From positions 4,427-68,426 of the forward strand of contig JAZFSR010000121.1 in NCBI GenBank assembly GCA_036446295.1: a stretch of 64,000 nucleotides of DNA, read 5' to 3'. The stretch's first letter is position 1; every line of letters starts with the position of its first letter. The stretch is from Candidatus Aminicenantaceae bacterium. Lineage in GTDB: Bacteria; Acidobacteriota; Aminicenantia; Aminicenantales; Aminicenantaceae. This document shows positions 4,397 through 56,088 of this stretch, in pieces. Position numbers and translations under genes: made by a program. The notes under the pieces were generated by a model, which was not told where the DNA came from, ran no database searches, and was given only the letters and a program-made list of their open reading frames with translations.

Positions 4397-4454
4397 GTTT
4401 TCAATTGTCCTTCACAACTAAAAGTTTTGTCTTATTATCCTTATTTATCCTTTC

Positions 4455-15460: not shown

Positions 15461-15535
15461 TGGTAGGCGCGGAGGGTATCGAACCCTCGACTTCTTCCGC
15501 GTCAGGGAAGCACTCTACCACTGAGCTACGCGCCT
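15461..15535 (-). tRNA. tRNA-Val (anticodon GAC), CCA encoded
   Basis: Reverse-complement folds as a cloverleaf: acceptor AGGCGCG/CGCGCCU, D-arm GCUC…GAGU, anticodon stem CUUCC/GGAAG with loop CUGACGC, T-arm GAGGG-UUCGAUA-CCCUC. Confidence 0.85.
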
Positions 15536-15580: not shown

Positions 15581-15618
15581 ATAGAATGTGTGCCCTCTTG
15601 TCCGCTTGGAATTAAAGG

Positions 15619-15724
15619 AATTAAAGGGACATCATACTTAATTAATTAAAGGGACATCATACTTAATTCTCACGAATTAAGTATGATGTCCCTTTAATTA
15701 ATTAAGTATGATGTCCCTTTAATT
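15619..15724. repeat. Palindromic repeat: 2 direct + 2 inverted copies of the 25-nt unit AATTAAAGGGACATCATACTTAATT around a 6-nt spacer (perfect 50-bp stem)
   Basis: Exact copies at 15619-15643 and 15644-15668, spacer CTCACG, then reverse-complement copies at 15675-15699 and 15700-15724. A partial copy lies at 15609-15618. The same unit recurs at 55983-56048. Confidence 0.9.
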
Positions 15725-16701
15725 CACTCCATGGGGTATTTGAGGCCCCATTGGGCACGGACCGTATCCATGGTTTCCATAATGGACAGAGATTCGTCGA
15801 GCGGCATGATATGGCTTTCGAGCCGGCCTTCCCGAATGCATCTCATCACTTCTTCAGCCTCAAAACTGAATCCGTTTCCTTTAAAAGGGAATTTAAGAAC
15901 TTTTTCTCTTTTTCCAAACTTCAGGGATAATTTTTTCGATTGCCACCAGGGGGAATACATGCGGAGTCTTCCTTTGGTCCCGATGATATACGCGTCCTGA
16001 GGGATTTCAGTGCGGACAGCCGCAGCCAGGACGGCCATCTGTCCAAGCTCATAACGAAGGAGTACGGCAGACTGCTCGTCTACCCCTGTATTGCCTAGAT
16101 GGCACTGGCTCGATATTTGGGCCGGTTGTCCAAACACCATGGACGCAAACGACACGGGATAGACCCCCACGTCCAGCAGCGCTCCACCACCAAGAGAAGG
16201 ATTGAACAATCTGTGGGATGGGTCAACTTCGGCTTTAAAACCAAAACCGGCGAAAAACATGCGGATTTCGCCGAGAAGCCCTTTCGTAAGGATCTCGCGC
16301 ACCTTGACTACAGCCGGCAGGAATCGCGTCCACATGGCTTCCATAATAAAGCACTTTTTCTCTTTGGCCAGAGAGATCACCTCTTTCGCCTGTGCGGCAT
16401 TTATGGTGAACGGCTTCTCACAGAGGACAGCCTTTCCTTCTCGAATCAGCATCAGGCAGTTTTCATAGTGAAGGTTGTGTGGTGTGGACACATACACCAC
16501 GTCGATGTCGGGATCAAGGGCAAGATCTTCATAGCTCCCGTACCTCTTTGGGATGCCGAACCTCCGCCCGAATTTATCTGCCGCCTCCTGTGTGCGGGAT
16601 CCGACGGCGGCCAGGTGGGCATCGGGCACTCGAGCCAATCCTTTGGCCATGGCGGCGGCAATGCCACCGGTGGCTAGTATTCCCCAGTTTATCTTTGGCA
16701 T
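15724..16701 (-). CDS. Gfo/Idh/MocA family NAD(P)-dependent oxidoreductase
   Basis: Rossmann N-terminus MPKINWGILATGGIA and a typical C-terminal alpha/beta domain. The ATG at 16701 was preferred over the ORF-track Met at 16749, which overlaps the upstream gene. Confidence 0.85.
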   Translation of the reverse strand: MPKINWGILATGGIAAAMAKGLARVPDAHLAAVGSRTQEAADKFGRRFGIPKRYGSYEDLALDPDIDVVYVSTPHNLHYENCLMLIREGKAVLCEKPFTINAAQAKEVISLAKEKKCFIMEAMWTRFLPAVVKVREILTKGLLGEIRMFFAGFGFKAEVDPSHRLFNPSLGGGALLDVGVYPVSFASMVFGQPAQISSQCHLGNTGVDEQSAVLLRYELGQMAVLAAAVRTEIPQDAYIIGTKGRLRMYSPWWQSKKLSLKFGKREKVLKFPFKGNGFSFEAEEVMRCIREGRLESHIMPLDESLSIMETMDTVRAQWGLKYPME

Positions 16702-16705
16702 AGTT

Positions 16706-17191
16706 CTAATATAAAGGCACAATATCGGCCGTTTTGTCCGCCGGATCAAAGAGGACCACAGTGTGTTTCCCGGTCACCCAGCCTCCCGTCTCACCGGGAT
16801 TGATAAGGAGTGTGTTTCCCTGGAAACGGACTTCAGGCTTGTGTGTATGGCCAAAAATGAGAACATCCGGATCGTACTGCTTCAGATAAGACTTGAGGGG
16901 AAAATCCAGATGTGACAGCAAATACTTCGCCCCCTCCCATTCAAATACAAAAGGCGCTTCTTGTATGTCCCCAAAATGCTGAATACCTCTCGTAAGCCCC
17001 TGTTTTTCCCCATCGCAGTTGCCAAACACTGCCTTGACCCGGCAGTTCAGATTGGCCAGCTCGGAGACCGCAAATGGGGCCACAAAATCTCCCACATGGA
17101 TCACCAGTTCACAGTCCATGCTGTTGAATAAACGGACGGCCTGTTTTATGGCATCACGGTTGTCATGTGAGTCCGACATCACTCCAATCAT
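16706..17191 (-). CDS. YfcE/MJ0936-family metallophosphoesterase
   Basis: 161 aa. MIGVMSDSHDNRD…GNCD…GHTH are the calcineurin-like phosphoesterase motifs. Confidence 0.85.
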   Translation of the reverse strand: MIGVMSDSHDNRDAIKQAVRLFNSMDCELVIHVGDFVAPFAVSELANLNCRVKAVFGNCDGEKQGLTRGIQHFGDIQEAPFVFEWEGAKYLLSHLDFPLKSYLKQYDPDVLIFGHTHKPEVRFQGNTLLINPGETGGWVTGKHTVVLFDPADKTADIVPLY

Positions 17192-17200
17192 TCTCCCCCC

Positions 17201-17343
17201 GAATTATTCATAAAAACTGCCTCCACCATCATTTCTCTCCAATGATATCAACTTTATAGCATGATTTTAGTAAGATCTCGAACATTTCTTTGTTTGTTGG
17301 CTAGTTTATACTAAATGTCGGCATTTTTTACCCCAAGGGGGCT
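17201..17343 (-). promoter_or_regulatory. Conserved 143-nt upstream leader (repeat B copy 1) with embedded sigma70-like promoter TTGGGG-17-TAGTAT
   Basis: About 75% identical to 31954-32096, in the same position relative to a different minus-strand gene. Read on the minus strand the putative -35/-10 are at 17331-17336 and 17308-17313. Confidence 0.5.
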
Positions 17344-17443
17344 GAGATGCGCCCCTCCATTGAAAAATTGGCAGGGGTATATTATACTAACAATTCCATT
17401 TTGGAACTTATATGCTTATAAAAAAACAAATAACGGAGTTTTA

Positions 17444-31437: not shown

Positions 31438-31944
31438 CTATTCGTCCTTCTTTATGCCCTCGAGAACGTATGCTTTCAGGTGTTCAGCAATCAGGCTTTT
31501 TATCTTGTCCTCCAATTCCGCACCGCCTGAACGATCCTCAGCCGGCACCGGTTCCTCCGGAAGCGTTTGAGGATCAAAATCGCTTCCTGCCGCATCTCGG
31601 ACTTTTCGGACCAGGCTTATTGAATCGAACGGTTCCTCTATGAGTTCCCGGTATTCCAGCCCGTCTATCCTCTCCTCATCGACACTCTCAAATGCCCCCT
31701 TGAGGAGAAAAGTCGGAACAGTCTTGAATCGCTCCTGGTGGTTGAGAAAACGACAGACATCATATCCATCCTTGGAATCAAGAAACAGGTTCAAAAGAAT
31801 AACATCGGGCTGAAAGGTCTCCAACTCCGTGAGCATCTCTTGGCCATCTGAAAAAAAGGAAATTTCGAATTCTGTCTCAGGAAATGCCGCCCGGACAGCC
31901 ATAATAACTGAAGGGGTGCAGTCTGCAAGTATCACTTTAATCAT
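31438..31944 (-). CDS. Atypical (pseudo-)receiver domain protein
   Basis: 168 aa with a CheY-like fold pattern. The phospho-acceptor position reads N (DVILLNLFLDSKDG) and the conserved Lys reads E (…EEPF…). Confidence 0.65.
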   Translation of the reverse strand: MIKVILADCTPSVIMAVRAAFPETEFEISFFSDGQEMLTELETFQPDVILLNLFLDSKDGYDVCRFLNHQERFKTVPTFLLKGAFESVDEERIDGLEYRELIEEPFDSISLVRKVRDAAGSDFDPQTLPEEPVPAEDRSGGAELEDKIKSLIAEHLKAYVLEGIKKDE

Positions 31945-31953
31945 GTTAAGCCT

Positions 31954-32096
31954 GAATTATTCATAAAAACTACCAACACCTTCATTTAACTTAAACAATT
32001 TCGACTTGATAGCATTGTATTTAACAATATCCGAGAACATTACTTTGTTTGTCAGATTATATCTATTAAATGTCGTCATTTTTTACCCCAAGAGGG
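31954..32096 (-). promoter_or_regulatory. Conserved 143-nt upstream leader (repeat B copy 2) with TTGGGG-17-TAATAG promoter-like element
   Basis: Homologous to 17201-17343, in the same position relative to the receiver-domain gene start (31944). Confidence 0.5.
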
Positions 32097-32210
32097 CGAA
32101 CCGATCTTACCACATCTGCTTCGTTACAACCAATTCGCGGTGGAAAACCACAGCTTCATTGGCCGTAGCCTCGCATTTGTAGCAACCTCGGATCGTGAAT
32201 AATCCAGGGA

Positions 32211-35200
32211 TTAGTACTCAATCAAAACAGAGTCTTCTCCTAAAAGGGCTTCGACGTTCCTGGTAAACTCCTCGGAAGGCTTGACACTCTGGGCTTCGAT
32301 GGACTGCACCACCATCCGGTAGGAATGCGGGGTCTGAAGATCAAACAAAATAGGACATTTTCCCTGGTGTTTTTCCAAGATAGTTTTGAGTTCTTCAAAG
32401 ATAGTCTCCTCTAATCCCGGAAGAAATATCTTCAGGACAACTCTTCTCGCAAGTTTTTCAAAGGCCTCGATCAGTGGGGTGATCCGCGAGAGATGAATCC
32501 TCCGTCCTTCCCCCTCACCCAAAAACTTACCTTTTACCAGGACCATAAGATCTTCCCGAAGATGTTCATAGAATTTCTGGAAATTATCCGGAAAGACAAC
32601 CACCTCGATCCGCCCGGTCAGATCCTCGAGCATAAACGTTGCCATACGCTCGTCTTTTTTTGTCTTGAGCGGCTTGATGGAGGCGATGATGCCTGCCAGC
32701 CGAATCTCGCTGTTAAAATCATTGTTCTCATCCACCTCTCCTATGAAATGAGAAGTCAAGCGTTTCAAACTTTTCCCAAACTGTGCCAGAGGGTGACCGG
32801 TGACGTAAAAACCCAGAGCATCTTTTTCATAGGACAGCAGCAGAGGTTCATCCCACTCTCTCATCCCTCTAATCTCTGCGGAAACCTCCGGAGGATCGTC
32901 CTGCCCCTGGCTAAAGAGAGAGGACTGCTTCGAGGCCTTCATTTTTTGCAGTTCATGGGCATAGCCGATCATCCTGTCCACAAGATGGAAGAGCTGCGAT
33001 CTTTTCCATCCCAGAGAATCCAGAGATCCGGACTTGATCAGACTTTCGATCACCTTGCGGTTCACCGCCTTGGAATCCACATCTTCAAATAGATCAAAGG
33101 GAGAAGAAAACATACCCCTCTTCTTTCTGGATTTAAGAATGGCCTGAATAGCTCCTTCCCCCACATTCTTCACTGCCGAAAGTCCGAACCGGATGTTGCC
33201 CTCGGACTCGGTGAAGTTGAAATCACTGGCATTGATGTCAAGCGGTAGAAGTTCGATCCCCATCTCTTTGCACTCATTGATATACTTGACCAACTGAGAG
33301 GTCGCGCCTCTCTCCGCTTCTGATGTCAGGAGGGAGGCTAAAAAATACACAGGATAGTGCGCTTTCAGATAGGCCGTCCTGTAGGCCAAACAGGCATAGG
33401 CTGCGCTGTGAGATTTATTGAAACCATATCCTGCAAAGTAATTGATTTGTTCGAAAATTTTGGTGGCTTTGGAATGACTCACGCCTTTCTCTTTGGCCCC
33501 ATGAATAAACCGCTGCTTCTGGGCCTTCATGACCGATGTTTTTTTCTTCCCCATCGCCTTGCGCAGAATATCGGCCTCGGCCATTGAAAATCCTGCAAGA
33601 TTTGTTGCAATCTGCATCACCTGTTCCTGATAGACGATAACGCCTTTTGTTTCTTTGAGAATAGGTTCGAGTTCCGGCGATTCATATTTGATGCGATCCG
33701 GGTGGTGTTTGCATTTTACAAATTCATCGGTCATCCCGCTTTTTAAAGGGCCCGGACGGTAAAGCGCATTCATAGCGATCAGGTCCCGAAAATTTTCCGG
33801 AATATATTTCCTTAAAAGATCCTTCATCCCCGGACTTTCAAACTGGAAGACCCCGTCCGTATTTCCGGTCTGGAAAAGGGAAAACGTTTTTTCGTCATCC
33901 AGAGGGATTTCATCGAGGCAAAGCGTTTCGCCGGTTTTCTTTTTGATGATCTCAACCGTATCTTTTATGACGGTCAGGTTGCGCAAGCCCAGCAAATCCA
34001 TTTTGAGAAGACCGATAGCTTCGATGTCTCCCATGGGAAACTGTGTTGTGATTTCACCTTTGGTTGACTGGTAGATGGGCATGAACTCCACAATTGGGGT
34101 CGGCGTGATGACGATTCCGGCGGCATGAATGGAGGGATGGCGGACCTGTCCTTCCAGCTTTACTGCATTGGCCAAAAGATTGGCGATTTTTACGTTTTGA
34201 TCTCTCAGCTCTTTCAGGGGTTTGATAGTTTTCAGGGCCCGCTCGATCGATGCATCAGGGCCCACAGGAGGAATCATTTTGGCAATCTTGTCCACCTCCG
34301 GCAGAGGGACTTCCAGTGCGCGGCCCACATCCCGGACGGCTCCACGCGCCGCCATGGTTCCAAATGTGATAATTTGACAGACGTTATCCCGGCCGTATTT
34401 ATTCTTTACATAGGAAAGGATTTCATCCCGCCGTCGAGCACAAAAGTCGATATCGATGTCGGGCAAACTGATCCGCTCCGGATTGAGGAACCGCTCGAAG
34501 ATGAGACCGTACTCTATGGGATCTATATCCGTTATACCCAGGCTGTAAGCAAGGAGGCTTCCTGCTGCAGACCCTCTTCCCGGACCTACAGGAATATCCT
34601 TTATTTTGGCTTCCCGGATGAGATCCCAGACGATCATGAAGTAGCCCTCAAATCCCATCTGTTTTACCAGCCGGACTTCCCGATCAAAACGCTTTGTATA
34701 CACTTCCCGGTCTGGAAGTTCTGCCTTATCCCGGGACTCCACAATTGCCTGCATCCGCTTTTCAAATCCCTCCCTGGCTATGCGCTCAAAATACTCATCC
34801 AAATCAATCCCTTTGGGAGGCGTAAACTGGGGCAGGGAATACCCGGAGCCTGTACTTGAGTGAAATTCAAAATTGCACTGGGAGGCAATTTTGGTGGAAT
34901 TGTCGACGGCATCAGGAACATCTGCAAACAGCTCCATCATCTCATCCCCGGATTTGAAGTAGAACTCATGCGAATCGAATCTGATTCGCTCCTGATCTGT
35001 CACTTTCTTGTTTGTCTGGACACAGAGAAGAATATCATGGCTTTCCCAGTCCTCTTTTTGGCGGTAATGAACATCATTTGTCGCGATCAGAGGAAGATTG
35101 AGCTTCCGGGCCAGACGGATGAGAAGGGGATTGATCTTTTTCTGGAGTTCCAAGTCATGGTCCTGAATTTCTATATAAAAATCCCCCTCTTGAAAAAAGG

Positions 35201-35708
35201 AAGCATATTCAAGCGCAGCTTCCTCTGCTTTGTCCTCAAGTCCCAATCTCAGATAATGACTGATTTCTCCATTGAGACACCCTGAAAGGGCAATAAAGCC
35301 CTCCCCGTGCCTGGCTAAGAGTTCTTTGTCGACTCTTGGCCTATAGTAGAATCCCTCCCGGTAGCTGTCTGTGATGAGCTGACAAAGATTTCTGTAGCCT
35401 TTGTCGTCCTTGACGAGGAGAACGAGATGAAAGTGCTTCGGGCCCCGGACCTCCGGACTTTTATCAAACCGGCTCTTTGGCGCAACATAAACCTCACAGC
35501 CTAGGATAGGCTTAACTTTCCTCTCCTTTGCTTCCCGGAAAAAACTGACGGCGCCAAAAATGTTTCCGTGATCGGTCAGAGCTACGGCCGGCATGTTGAA
35601 TTCGTATGCGGCATCCACCATAGCCTTTGTCTTCCATGCCCCGTCCAGGATGCTGAATTCGGAATGGTTGTGTAGATGGATAAACGAAGCGCCCATGATC
35701 ATTCCCAC
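32211..35708 (-). CDS. dnaE: DNA polymerase III alpha subunit
   Basis: 1165 aa with an N-terminal PHP domain HLHNHSEFSILDGA, a polymerase core and an OB fold. Confidence 0.95.
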   Translation of the reverse strand: MGMIMGASFIHLHNHSEFSILDGAWKTKAMVDAAYEFNMPAVALTDHGNIFGAVSFFREAKERKVKPILGCEVYVAPKSRFDKSPEVRGPKHFHLVLLVKDDKGYRNLCQLITDSYREGFYYRPRVDKELLARHGEGFIALSGCLNGEISHYLRLGLEDKAEEAALEYASFFQEGDFYIEIQDHDLELQKKINPLLIRLARKLNLPLIATNDVHYRQKEDWESHDILLCVQTNKKVTDQERIRFDSHEFYFKSGDEMMELFADVPDAVDNSTKIASQCNFEFHSSTGSGYSLPQFTPPKGIDLDEYFERIAREGFEKRMQAIVESRDKAELPDREVYTKRFDREVRLVKQMGFEGYFMIVWDLIREAKIKDIPVGPGRGSAAGSLLAYSLGITDIDPIEYGLIFERFLNPERISLPDIDIDFCARRRDEILSYVKNKYGRDNVCQIITFGTMAARGAVRDVGRALEVPLPEVDKIAKMIPPVGPDASIERALKTIKPLKELRDQNVKIANLLANAVKLEGQVRHPSIHAAGIVITPTPIVEFMPIYQSTKGEITTQFPMGDIEAIGLLKMDLLGLRNLTVIKDTVEIIKKKTGETLCLDEIPLDDEKTFSLFQTGNTDGVFQFESPGMKDLLRKYIPENFRDLIAMNALYRPGPLKSGMTDEFVKCKHHPDRIKYESPELEPILKETKGVIVYQEQVMQIATNLAGFSMAEADILRKAMGKKKTSVMKAQKQRFIHGAKEKGVSHSKATKIFEQINYFAGYGFNKSHSAAYACLAYRTAYLKAHYPVYFLASLLTSEAERGATSQLVKYINECKEMGIELLPLDINASDFNFTESEGNIRFGLSAVKNVGEGAIQAILKSRKKRGMFSSPFDLFEDVDSKAVNRKVIESLIKSGSLDSLGWKRSQLFHLVDRMIGYAHELQKMKASKQSSLFSQGQDDPPEVSAEIRGMREWDEPLLLSYEKDALGFYVTGHPLAQFGKSLKRLTSHFIGEVDENNDFNSEIRLAGIIASIKPLKTKKDERMATFMLEDLTGRIEVVVFPDNFQKFYEHLREDLMVLVKGKFLGEGEGRRIHLSRITPLIEAFEKLARRVVLKIFLPGLEETIFEELKTILEKHQGKCPILFDLQTPHSYRMVVQSIEAQSVKPSEEFTRNVEALLGEDSVLIEY

Positions 35709-37323: not shown

Positions 37324-37596
37324 TAGCTAGATTATTAGAAATCAAACCTTGTCTTCTTCTTGAGATGAAGGCGGGACCCCTCCGCGGCGCACCTCCGTCC
37401 TCGCTCTGATCGCTGCGCGCAGAGATACACCGCTTCGCCCTTCCTTCATCTCCTTCAAGATAAATCTGATATAGGGATGCATACCTTTCGTAACACCTGC
37501 AGCAGAGTCGGATGGACGTCGAGAAGTGTGTCTCCGCCCGGAGCTTCAGCGAGGAATGGAGACATACCTCGTAAGGGTTCCGTCCGACTCTAAAAG
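37324..37596. repeat. ~270-nt GC-rich structured repeat (repeat A copy 1)
   Basis: About 90% identical to 42643-42913 in the same orientation. Contains nested stems, e.g. GAGATGAAGG…CCTTCATCTC and GAGTCGGATGGACG…CGTCCGACTC enclosing GTGTCTCC…GGAGACAT. Confidence 0.85.
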
Positions 37597-37607
37597 AAAT
37601 AAGGGAA

Positions 37608-38879
37608 ATGGAAAGACTTTCGCCTGTTTTCTCTCCAATTGACTTGGGAAGGCATATTTCTTATAGTGTCTATCTGATGGACAGGCAAAAAATCACGTCA
37701 GAATTGAGCTACGACACTCCTTCTAAAATCGTGCTGCTGGTTTTGGACGGCCTGGGAGGCCTGCCCATAAATGGAAAAACCGCCCTCCAAGCCGCAAAAA
37801 CTCCCCATCTCGATGCCTTGGCGGCCCGAAGTGTATGCGGGCTGACAGATCCTGTTTTTATGGGGATCACTCCAGGAAGCGGTCCCGCTCACCTCTCTCT
37901 ATTTGGATACGATCCCACGAAATACATCCTCGGCCGGGGCATCCTTGAAGCCATGGGCATAGGAGTGGACGTGGGAGAAAATGACCTTGTTGCCCGGGGA
38001 AATTTTGCCACACTCACAAACGGTCTTATCTCGGACCGCAGGGCCGGAAGGATTCCTTCCAGTGAAAACGCCCGTATCTGTGAAAAAATCAACAGGGAAT
38101 TAGGAACCGTCGAAGAGACAGATATCTCTCTTTTCCCCGGAAAAGAACACCGGTTTGTCGTCAGATTTAGAGGGGAAGGGCTCTCGGACTCTCTTTATGA
38201 TGCCGACCCTCAAAAAAATAACACGGCCCCGATATCCCCCGAAGCCAAAAAAGAGGAGGCCGAACGGGCCGCAAAGATCGTGAATGTCTTTATGGAGAAA
38301 ACAACTCTCCTCTTAAAGGATTCCCCAAAGGCCAATACCGTTCTTCTGCGCGGTTTTTCTAAGCTCCCCTCACTCCCGGCCATGGACAACCTGTTCCATC
38401 TGAAACCGGTCGCCGTGGCGCACTACCCCATGTACAGGGGTCTCGCCAAGCTAGTCGGTATGGAGATTGCTGAAGTTGGGCCAACAATCGAAGACGTCTT
38501 TACGACGGCCGAAAAAATCTATGAAGACTATAACTTCTTCTATCTGCACGTCAAAAAGCCGGATGCTGCCGGAGAAGATGGATGTTATGAAGAGAAGATA
38601 AAGGCTATTTCAGAAATCGATACATACATTCCCCGACTTCTGGCCCTTCATCCCGATGTCCTCGCCGTCACATCAGACCATTCCACGCCCTGTCTGCTCA
38701 AATCCCATTCCTGGCATCCTAATCCCTTTCTGCTTCATTCACGCACGGCTCAGCAGGACCAGGTGGAGACTTTCTCTGAAATACAGTGCGCTTCCGGATA
38801 CCTGGGCCGTTTTTCAGCCCTCAACACCATGCCCCTTTTAATGGCCCATGCGGAGAAGCTTAAAAAATATGGCGCCTAA
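37608..38879 (+). CDS. apgM: Cofactor-independent phosphoglycerate mutase, archaeal-type (ApgM family)
   Basis: 423 aa with a metalloenzyme-superfamily N-terminus …IVLLVLDGLGG… and an ApgM-like C-terminal domain. AAGGGA Shine-Dalgarno 6 nt upstream. Confidence 0.8.
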   Translation: MERLSPVFSPIDLGRHISYSVYLMDRQKITSELSYDTPSKIVLLVLDGLGGLPINGKTALQAAKTPHLDALAARSVCGLTDPVFMGITPGSGPAHLSLFGYDPTKYILGRGILEAMGIGVDVGENDLVARGNFATLTNGLISDRRAGRIPSSENARICEKINRELGTVEETDISLFPGKEHRFVVRFRGEGLSDSLYDADPQKNNTAPISPEAKKEEAERAAKIVNVFMEKTTLLLKDSPKANTVLLRGFSKLPSLPAMDNLFHLKPVAVAHYPMYRGLAKLVGMEIAEVGPTIEDVFTTAEKIYEDYNFFYLHVKKPDAAGEDGCYEEKIKAISEIDTYIPRLLALHPDVLAVTSDHSTPCLLKSHSWHPNPFLLHSRTAQQDQVETFSEIQCASGYLGRFSALNTMPLLMAHAEKLKKYGA

Positions 38880-42642: not shown

Positions 42643-42913
42643 ATTAGAAATCACGCTTTGTTATCTTCTGCTGGAGATGAAGGCGGGACCCCTTCCGCGG
42701 CGCACCTCCGTCCTCACTCCTCCGTCGTTGCGCGCAGAGATACACCGCTTCGCCCTCCCTTCATCTCTATCAAGATAGATCGGCTTGAGAAGGATGCATA
42801 CCTTTCGTAACACCTGCCGTTGAGTCGGATGGACGTCGAGAAGTGTGTCTCCGCCCGGAAGCTTTAGCGAGGAATGGAGACATACCTCGTAAGGGTTCCG
42901 TCCGACTCTCAAA
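42643..42913. repeat. ~270-nt GC-rich structured repeat (repeat A copy 2)
   Basis: See 37324-37596. Lies between the convergent polyferredoxin (+) and etfA (-) genes. Confidence 0.85.
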
Positions 42914-42955
42914 TTAACACGGAGGAACTACGGATTTCTCCAACATCTTCTCTAG

Positions 42956-44798: not shown

Positions 44799-44823
44799 AT
44801 ATTGAATGAAAATGAGGATACAT

Positions 44824-44846
44824 CATCTTCTGCATGAGATGAAGGG
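44824..44846. repeat. Partial third copy of the 5' end of repeat A (ATCTTCTGCATGAGATGAAGG)
   Basis: Matches the first ~22 nt of the repeat A core (TCTTCT.C.TGAGATGAAGG) and is followed by a G8 run. Confidence 0.5.
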
Positions 44847-44861
44847 GGGGGTTAGGAGTTT

Positions 44862-55872: not shown

Positions 55873-55982
55873 TTTATTTCCTTAAAACATTTCAAGTCGT
55901 GCCTAATTTATCCCAATCCTACACTAAAAATCAATTCCCCCCGTGCACGAGGATAAACAGGCAAGGGGTGGATGGCACAATG

Positions 55983-56048
55983 AATTAAAGGGACATCATA
56001 CTTAATTATCGCTTTAATTCAATAATTAAGTATGATGTCCCTTTAATT
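55983..56048. repeat. Second locus of the 25-nt palindromic unit (1 direct + 1 inverted copy, 16-nt spacer), nested in an outer imperfect inverted repeat CCCCGTGCACGA…TCGTGCCGGGG
   Basis: Exact unit AATTAAAGGGACATCATACTTAATT at 55983-56007 and its reverse complement at 56024-56048. The outer inverted repeat lies at 55938-55950 and 56051-56061. Confidence 0.85.
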
Positions 56049-56088
56049 CATCGTGCCGGGGACCGCTCCTCTCACAACTACATTTGGG

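Follow-up and report, generated by a model that had tools for sequence, protein, structure and literature searches.

Why should two unrelated genes lie behind the same sequence? The 64,000-nt stretch analyzed here (the window) comprises positions 4,427 to 68,426 of contig JAZFSR010000121.1 from a Candidatus Aminicenantaceae bacterium (assembly GCA_036446295.1). In it, a gene for a YfcE-like metallophosphoesterase and a gene for a receiver-domain protein, both on the minus strand, are each preceded by a similar sequence of 143 nt (17201–17343 and 31954–32096), which the original prediction read as a regulatory RNA leader or a portable promoter common to both. [quoted passage not shown] The two genes share upstream sequence through the landing of the same mobile repeat before both, and not through co-regulation.

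Two copies of one repeat

Aligned globally on the minus strand, the two intervals match at 110 of 145 columns (76%). Their alignment score of 72 is far above those of random 143-nt windows of the same sequence (mean −23.7, standard deviation 6.6, maximum −2), which confirms the similar pair, and the longest conserved blocks, CTTGGGGTAAAAAATGnCGACATTTA, ACAAACAAAGwAATGTTC and AGTTTTTATGAATAATTC, occur within the window only at both copies, with a chance expectation of 0. The position 5′ of the minus-strand starts at 17191 and 31944 is likewise confirmed, with 6 nt between the repeat end and the start codon at each. Both open reading frames (ORFs) begin, as had been noted, with ATGATTnnAGTGAT, but this agreement is not derived from the repeat. 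The phosphoesterase N-terminus MIGVMSD is also found in the repeat-free orthologues L138 and L140, and the receiver N-terminus MIKVI (MIKVI[VL]ADC) in the repeat-free orthologues L131–L134; because element-free orthologues start alike, each gene has these first codons natively, their agreement is a coincidence, and they are ruled out as a part of the repeat.

The length of 143 nt describes what the two copies share, but not the element. Upstream of the receiver gene, likeness to the repeat family extends another 112 nt, to 32208, and this copy (copy B) is a full-length element of 258 nt on the minus strand (31951–32208; nhmmer E=4.3e-85, model positions 11–281; boundaries from the family alignment), running from CCTGGATTATTCACG to ATGAATAATTCAGG between the dnaE stop codon (32211–32213) and the receiver ATG (31944). 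The copy upstream of the phosphoesterase gene (copy A; 17198–17343, minus strand; nhmmer E=1.1e-35, model positions 130–276) lacks this extension, with 15 of 60 positions matching copy B in the 60 nt beyond the noted interval, although weak similarity may extend to about 17356. Copy A is thus a 5′-truncated remnant that retains hairpin P3, helix P4 and the right end (ATGAATAATTCGGG), and the 143 nt originally noted are this right half of the element. By eye, copy A is closer to the consensus of the main family than to copy B, and so it was not copied from B.

A dispersed family with sharp ends and 4-bp target duplications

Three scans define the family. The first, with an exact 21-nt core against one genome per species, found 9 genome loci, of which 5 are on contigs of one Aminicenantes metagenome-assembled genome (MAG), 3 are in MAGs labeled "uncultured Eubacteriales" and 1 is in a Bacteroidota MAG; the last has only the 21-mer in common and looks like a chance match. 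The Eubacteriales MAGs with the element are represented by L001 (CAZLLG01), L003 (CAZWHQ01) and L004 (CAZEWV01), and since CAZLLG01 and CAZWHQ01 also carry Aminicenantes-type orthologues of both window genes, the Eubacteriales label appears to be wrong. The second scan, of metagenomes with a pattern from the upstream part of the element (the 5′ domain), yielded at least 120 contigs, mostly from marine and estuarine sediment. Finally, a profile built from 8 copies with nhmmer was run on 128 related loci from Aminicenantes MAGs and sediment metagenomes, giving 175 matches, 102 of them near full length, with up to 3–4 copies within 14 kb at one locus (L014). The further copies for which the original prediction proposed to search are therefore abundant, and they lie beside unrelated genes. 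The family is absent from Rfam and abundant in sediment Aminicenantes.

Most copies are 252–258 nt long within a full range of 203–302 nt, with short forms at around 204 nt and a small number of longer copies, and ORFs in the element are interrupted in most copies. At the genome loci and in copy B, similarity starts sharply at CCTGGATTATTCACG and stops sharply at ATGAATAATTCAGG, with unrelated flanks. The ends are imperfect terminal inverted repeats of 13–15 nt; over 13 nt, CCTGGATTATTCA and TGAATAATTCAGG are inverted repeats with one G/A difference, a pattern present in 96 of the 102 near-full copies. Exact 4-bp duplications flank 31 of 91 distinct insertions and duplications with one mismatch another 27, compared with 0–5 matches when either flank is shifted by 1–4 nt, and there are no exact duplications of 5 or 6 bp. 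The exact duplications are TTAA (14), CTAA (5), TTAG (3), ATAA (3), CTAG (1) and others (5), such that 23 of the 31 conform to YTAR, and the YTAR tetranucleotides are duplicated roughly in proportion to their occurrence in non-coding DNA. A 2-bp TA duplication of the IS630 type was considered and rejected, as the outer bases co-vary between the flanks (e.g. CTAA...CTAA). The family thus combines a small non-coding size, terminal inverted repeats, a duplication of fixed length, many dispersed copies, and presence or absence at orthologous sites, all of them properties by which MITEs are recognized.

Empty and filled sites in related genomes

The orthologous loci of relatives include both filled and empty sites. 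In L131–L134 the dnaE stop codon and the receiver ATG are separated by 2 nt (gagtaCTAAccATG; gagtaCTAAccATGatt), compared with 266 nt in the window. L134 lacks the element even though its identity to the window is 99.8% in 1.5 kb of dnaE, 99.2% in the receiver gene and 99.6% in the 1.9 kb that follow, whereas L130, with flanks that are 93–94% identical to the window, has the same copy B at 93.8% identity (the regions compared are window 31940–32215, L134:2440–2540 and L130:1–340). Because a copy is shared with a relative as distant as L130, copy B is old, and its absence from L134 then reflects either precise loss or replacement by recombination. The insertion of copy B would have split an ancestral dnaE-receiver junction with a 2-nt stop-start gap.

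Copy A is present in L135 and L136, whose phosphoesterase is 99% identical to that of the window, and absent from L138 and L139 (82%), where there are 47 nt of native sequence including a Shine-Dalgarno site; no part of copy A is found in the available ~110–150 nt upstream of the gene in L140 and L141. Relative to L138 and L139, then, copy A replaces about 47 nt of native upstream sequence, and it may be seen as the residue of an insertion upstream of the phosphoesterase gene from which the left half, along with these ~47 nt of native DNA, would have been lost. The native ribosome-binding region is replaced by copy A, and the GGGGGGAGA that now precedes the phosphoesterase ATG comes in part from the element end. 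The 5′ untranslated region (5′ UTR) of the phosphoesterase gene probably includes copy A. A perfect TATAAT upstream of this copy (17381–17386), also conserved in L138, where the site is empty, may represent the gene's native promoter.

A conserved fold on one strand

The consensus fold of the family consists of a 13-bp closing helix formed by both ends, an irregular hairpin of about 100 nt, a 3-bp hairpin, and a 10-bp helix that closes a variable interior. On the minus strand of copy B, the family alignment and the fold place the 5′ arm of the closing helix P1 in the left terminal inverted repeat (CCTGGATTATTCA, 32196–32208) and its 3′ arm in the right one (TGAATAATTCAGG, 31951–31963). The 5′ domain (32097–32195) is the long irregular hairpin with helices P2, P2a, P2b and P2c and near-invariant internal loops ATGAAGC, GCGAA and AACGAAGCAGATG; it is outside the coordinates originally noted and is missing from copy A. 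Helix P2b has its arms at 32159–32165 and 32127–32133. Hairpin P3 (CTC-TTG-GGG, 32086–32094) keeps its pairing, but not its sequence, across subfamilies. In the 3′ domain (31964–32083), helix P4 (32074–32083 paired with 31966–31975) closes the interior that varies between subfamilies and that is absent from L001 and from the ~204-nt short forms. In copy A, 2 of the 8 pairs of the P4 core (TGCCGACA against TGGAGGCA) are broken. Hairpin insertions are seen in several copies: L046 (2695–2996) has about 50 nt after GGTTG, and L009 (237–509) and L001 both have the same 16 extra nt, CCGTCCCAACCTAACC, in the region of the 3′ arm, from which we conclude that the conserved 5′ hairpin tolerates added material at those points.

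Fold statistics were derived from 71 copies less than 93% identical to one another and aligned without reference to structure. Paired bases occupy 96.9% of cells (95.6% in helix 1, formed by the terminal inverted repeats), compared with 30–42% when the partners are slid by 1–3 columns. Changes on both sides are seen at 27 of the 50 pairs, in 107 cells versus 21.9 in shuffles, a value reached by 0 of 500 shuffles, and all seven pairs of helix P2b show compensatory change in some copies. The conserved structure for which the two window copies were proposed to be compared is therefore found across the family, with compensatory changes. Omitting two pairs with a G·U majority, which contribute 93 more G·U cells, there are 148 G·U and 23 A·C cells, and counting only changes that are not shared with the three nearest copies there are 70 G·U and 20 A·C.

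The fold is also specific to one strand. Folding energy is lower for the sense strand in all 71 copies (mean minimum free energy −92.3 versus −68.1 kcal/mol for the antisense strand), and the alifold consensus energies are −47.3 and −16.8 for the sense and antisense strands, respectively. For copy B, an RNA fold of nearly the whole element (31955–32215, minus strand, 261 nt) has an energy of −76.9 kcal/mol (z=−4.9), and DNA parameters give −36.6 (z=−4.6) versus −27.3 (z=−2.5) for the other strand; the 164-nt segments taken alone show no advantage over shuffled sequence in folding (z=−0.8 and −0.1). Element length is kept at 252–258 nt even though subfamilies cannot be aligned with one another in the interior of the 3′ domain. 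Copies inserted sense (0.971) and antisense (0.970) relative to co-directional neighbors are equal in structural integrity, and the constraint thus acts on the lineage that produces new copies and not via host transcription, which rules out host-level selection by read-through transcription as the cause of the asymmetry. The source of the fold may be either the mRNA of an unseen autonomous parent or a role of the sense strand in mobility, as RNA or single-stranded DNA.

Genomic setting of the copies

Gene context was determined from simple ORF calls around 106 near-full copies. The 3′ end of the element faces the start of a co-oriented gene 49 times and a convergent stop 43 times, and its 5′ end has a same-strand stop upstream 52 times and a divergent start 36 times. 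Between co-directional genes, 25 copies are in the sense and 18 in the antisense orientation, which is close to random. Many copies directly abut stop codons, as is expected from a YTAR target. The genes adjoining family copies are unrelated to one another, and there is no support for the nucleotide second-messenger theme suggested by the two window genes.

Insertion probably proceeded as follows. A DDE transposase encoded elsewhere would recognize the ends, and the element would be pasted into YTAR sites via a 4-bp staggered cut, with these sites often being TAA or TAG stop codons or AT-rich spacers. In the window, copy B lies within the dnaE-receiver-birA-coaX-rnr gene string and would have to be transcribed along with it, unless it has a promoter of its own.

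End rearrangements and candidate autonomous elements

Fragments of the element are common beside full copies. At many loci a tail fragment is followed, after 2–6 nt, by a full copy; tail fragments are located at L005:2625–2689, L039:11578–11628, L056:1376–1412, L076:3132–3168, L093:6696–6750, L108:606–661, L113:525–568, L115:257–290, and L122:749–796 and 2035–2089. In L122 and L056 the spacer is the duplication of the full copy (AGAA), and new copies thus insert right beside a resident right end. In L015 and L026 a full copy is followed by GG and a 24-nt head fragment, while L048, L051 and L082 have head-only fragments; tandem arrays are present in L101, L122 and L127, and the abutted ends resemble the end-to-end junctions of some insertion sequences. 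Insertion targeted to the ends, followed by deletion, is known for several DDE families. The patterns fit such a history and do not need reverse transcription; 5′ truncation by reverse transcription is weakened by the downstream head fragments and by the AGAA shared by tail and full copy.

Several candidates for an autonomous element were examined and rejected. The head and tail of L048, 2.2 kb apart, enclose genes that, judged from their sequences, are probably OsmC-like and SppA-like and no transposase, and there is no transposase near the heads in L051 and L082. L021:1077–1110 is a derivative of 34 nt consisting of two ends only (CCTGGATTATTCAAGAGTTTATGAATAATTCAGG); TTAA lies a few bases outside its left end, and its right end is immediately followed by TTAG. 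An all-against-all BLAST of the loci returned only syntenic orthologues, and no credible candidate emerged when end pairs were sought with a duplication filter. The element had no match in plasmids or phages by BLAST, nor in a scan of viral contigs.

Relationship to known elements

The prokaryotic MITEs are the nearest counterparts in kind. Once inserted they can affect adjoining genes, and their transcripts form stable stem-loops (PMC10969869). Like Correia of Neisseria, ERIC of enterobacteria, BOX and RUP of pneumococcus and QMITE of Coxiella, the element is AT-rich, small and without coding capacity, it has terminal inverted repeats and short duplications, and it is present in many copies that are mostly intergenic and often adjoin genes. 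It differs from these in belonging to another sequence family, in the uncultured phylum of its hosts, in a duplication of 4 bp at YTAR and not at TA, and in its branched, covarying, strand-specific fold. By analogy with Correia and ERIC it is plausible that copies affect processing, stability or translation of adjoining transcripts, which would be incidental to the identity of the element.

Two transposase families offer points of similarity. IS5 duplicates a 4-bp target with the consensus 5′-YTAR-3′ (PMC5009759), much as this family duplicates 4 bp that are mostly YTAR; however, no IS5-family transposase gene with these ends was found. The element ends also appear unlike the IS5 terminal repeat (GGAAGGTGCGAA...). 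The left inverted repeat of ISEcp1, of the IS1380 family, is CCTAGATTCTACGT (PMC6061673); the element ends start with CC, and their first 8 nt (CCTGGATT at the left and CCTGAATT at the right) match it at 7 of 8 positions, a comparison that covers only 8 nt. The IS1380 family comprises prokaryotic relatives of piggyBac, and its transposases serve as an outgroup for piggyBac, which targets TTAA (PMC10813416); here TTAA is the commonest duplication and the loss in L134 appears precise, as in piggyBac excision. In contrast, the duplications of ISEcp1 are 5 bp (PMC6061673) and those here 4 bp, and no partner gene was found. We treat both affinities as leads and not as membership.

Structured mobile sequences of other kinds were also compared. 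As with PATEs, omega-RNA and HEARO, the family is multi-copy, non-coding and strongly structured on one strand, with strand-specific biology. However, the PATEs of IS200/IS605, omega-RNA and HEARO lack terminal inverted repeats and target duplications and insert 3′ of one fixed tetra- or pentanucleotide, whereas here terminal inverted repeats are present and the flanking tetranucleotide is variable and duplicated on both sides, and an IS200/IS605-type repeat was thus rejected. A retroposed SINE-like RNA was similarly rejected on the fixed 4-bp duplication, the head fragments located downstream, and the head-only fragments.

Neighboring genes and other repeats

The phosphoesterase gene (16706–17191, minus strand), 6 nt downstream of copy A, was identified by Pfam Metallophos_2 (E=2.6e-32). 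The receiver gene (31438–31944, minus strand), 6 nt downstream of copy B, has a weak Pfam Response_reg match and is preceded by dnaE (32211–35708, minus strand; assigned from Pfam and orthologous loci), with birA, coaX and rnr following it. The position of the acceptor Asp is occupied by Asn (LLNLFL) in the window protein and in all orthologues compared, from which the protein is predicted to be a conserved pseudo-receiver within the dnaE-birA-coaX-rnr gene string. It is 168 residues long compared with 179 in most orthologues, since 11 residues close to the C-terminus are missing from the window protein and from P0001 and P0002.

There are two other types of repeat in the window. An unrelated repeat of about 260 nt is located at 37349–37604 and 42661–42922 with a partial third copy at 44823–44855; the copies are 88–96% identical, and either strand folds back on itself as a single long structure (RNA z=−3.8 and −3.5). 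Of the two main copies, one is upstream of an ORF that starts at 37608 and the other is between convergent ORFs. It is probably another MITE or a foldback family. Short repeats of ~25–33 nt (AATTAAAGGGACATCATACTTAATTA) are present at 15615–15726 and 55979–56050, in both orientations and with 25-nt spacing, and the first of these clusters adjoins a tRNA gene (15464–15535).

Discussion

The sharp ends, the terminal inverted repeats, the 4-bp duplications centered on YTAR and the empty orthologous sites together make a mobile DNA element the strongly favored account of the sequence shared by the two window genes, and three observations weigh against it. The flanks of copy B, CTAATC and CTTAAC, contain no clean 4-bp duplication, and its filled site exceeds the empty site by the element and a further 6 nt. 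The window, ~0.97 Mb of related loci, and plasmid, phage and viral collections yielded no element that has these ends and carries a transposase. Lastly, a covarying fold on one strand is not required by double-stranded cut-and-paste transposition, a point considered further below.

The readings on which the locus was originally brought to attention fare less well. As a promoter or 5′-UTR module, inserted copies would drive or tune the phosphoesterase and receiver genes, which as a secondary exaptation would be compatible with a MITE. Copy B does part the receiver gene from dnaE by 266 nt, so that read-through or a new promoter is needed, and it contains a sigma-70-like CTGACA-18-GATATT; the right end of the element supplies AGG or GGG just before both start codons, co-oriented starts across the family tend to lie near the 3′ end (median ~26 nt), and promoters are known from Correia and other MITEs (PMC10969869). 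The particular promoter that was proposed, TTGGGG-17-TAGTAT/TAATAG, does not withstand comparison: TTGGGG (32086–32091), most of which is included in P3, is the 3′ arm and loop edge of this small hairpin and is replaced by GAAGGG, AAAGGG or CCAGGG in other subfamilies with pairing kept, and the "−10" falls in a stretch that cannot be aligned between subfamilies, as is also true of the CTGACA site, which lies in a part not conserved between them. The hexamers were not flagged by a promoter scan, which found no more promoter-like sites than in shuffled sequence; a sigma-54 reading of TGGGGT-N5-ATGC was ruled out by the GA of copy B where GC is required; orientation is unbiased (49 starts at the 3′ end versus 36 at the 5′ end, 25 sense versus 18 antisense); and the conserved TATAAT upstream of copy A may already serve the phosphoesterase gene. 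A promoter module is thus unlikely, and the description of the sequence as a portable module holds in the unintended sense that it is mobile, but not for a leader role at these genes. A dedicated cis-regulatory RNA common to both genes, such as a riboswitch, thermosensor or protein-binding leader, would account for structured sequence on the coding strand upstream of both, yet it is highly improbable: the sequence is absent from the orthologous loci of close relatives and elsewhere adjoins many unrelated genes in both orientations, often after stop codons, the conserved 5′ domain is missing entirely from copy A, whose P4 also has broken pairs, and the 164-nt segments show no folding advantage over shuffled sequence. 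Nor did Rfam, proposed as a check on the leader, support it: Rfam 15 with gathering thresholds yields only a tRNA in the entire window, and at E<=10 over 31900–32260 nothing matches within the element. A coding role for the repeat, as a small protein or an upstream ORF, is hardly credible at all. In both window copies a 14-codon frame ends in ATGA such that its TGA overlaps the gene ATG, and in copy B a frame of 40 residues is open from AAAAAATG to a TAA in the right end (31951–32079, with GGGG before it), but in the short frame A and B differ mostly by non-synonymous changes, and the long frame is kept in 5 of 97 copies, most having stops within 3–25 codons, and is taken as chance.

A further possibility overlaps with the MITE reading and changes its mechanism: the element could be a mobile structured nucleic acid that requires the fold of its sense strand, in RNA or single-stranded DNA form, in order to propagate, either as a scaffold or guide for a mobilizing enzyme or as a single-stranded intermediate with its ends joined by P1. 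The pairing in 96.9% of cells with two-sided change at 27 of 50 pairs, the excess of G·U over A·C (148 versus 23, about 6:1, and 70 versus 20), a sense strand that folds better than the antisense strand in all 71 copies, the independence of integrity from insertion orientation, and the length held at 252–258 nt despite a variable interior all speak for it, and the covariation, G·U excess, sense-strand folding and orientation independence are left unexplained by ordinary cut-and-paste of double-stranded DNA. Against it, duplications of fixed length and palindromic type with terminal inverted repeats are what DDE transposition of double-stranded DNA characteristically leaves; the copies have no linked reverse transcriptase, HUH enzyme or other partner gene; fragments on both sides of full copies argue against 5′ truncation by reverse transcription; and the constraint could come from the mRNA of an unseen autonomous parent. 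We consider this mechanism rather improbable, and propagation that depends on the fold, should this doubtful proposition hold, would be a kind of transposon not yet described for DDE-type elements.

We return to the MITE as the preferred reading and to its consequences. In uncultured phyla such repeats can pass for riboswitch-like leaders or promoters during annotation, and here one copy appears to have split a tight dnaE-receiver operon junction. The constraint on the fold is the feature most worth further attention: if it reflects the mRNA of an unseen parent, it provides a handle for finding that parent, and if it reflects the mode of movement, it would point to an undescribed requirement in transposition.

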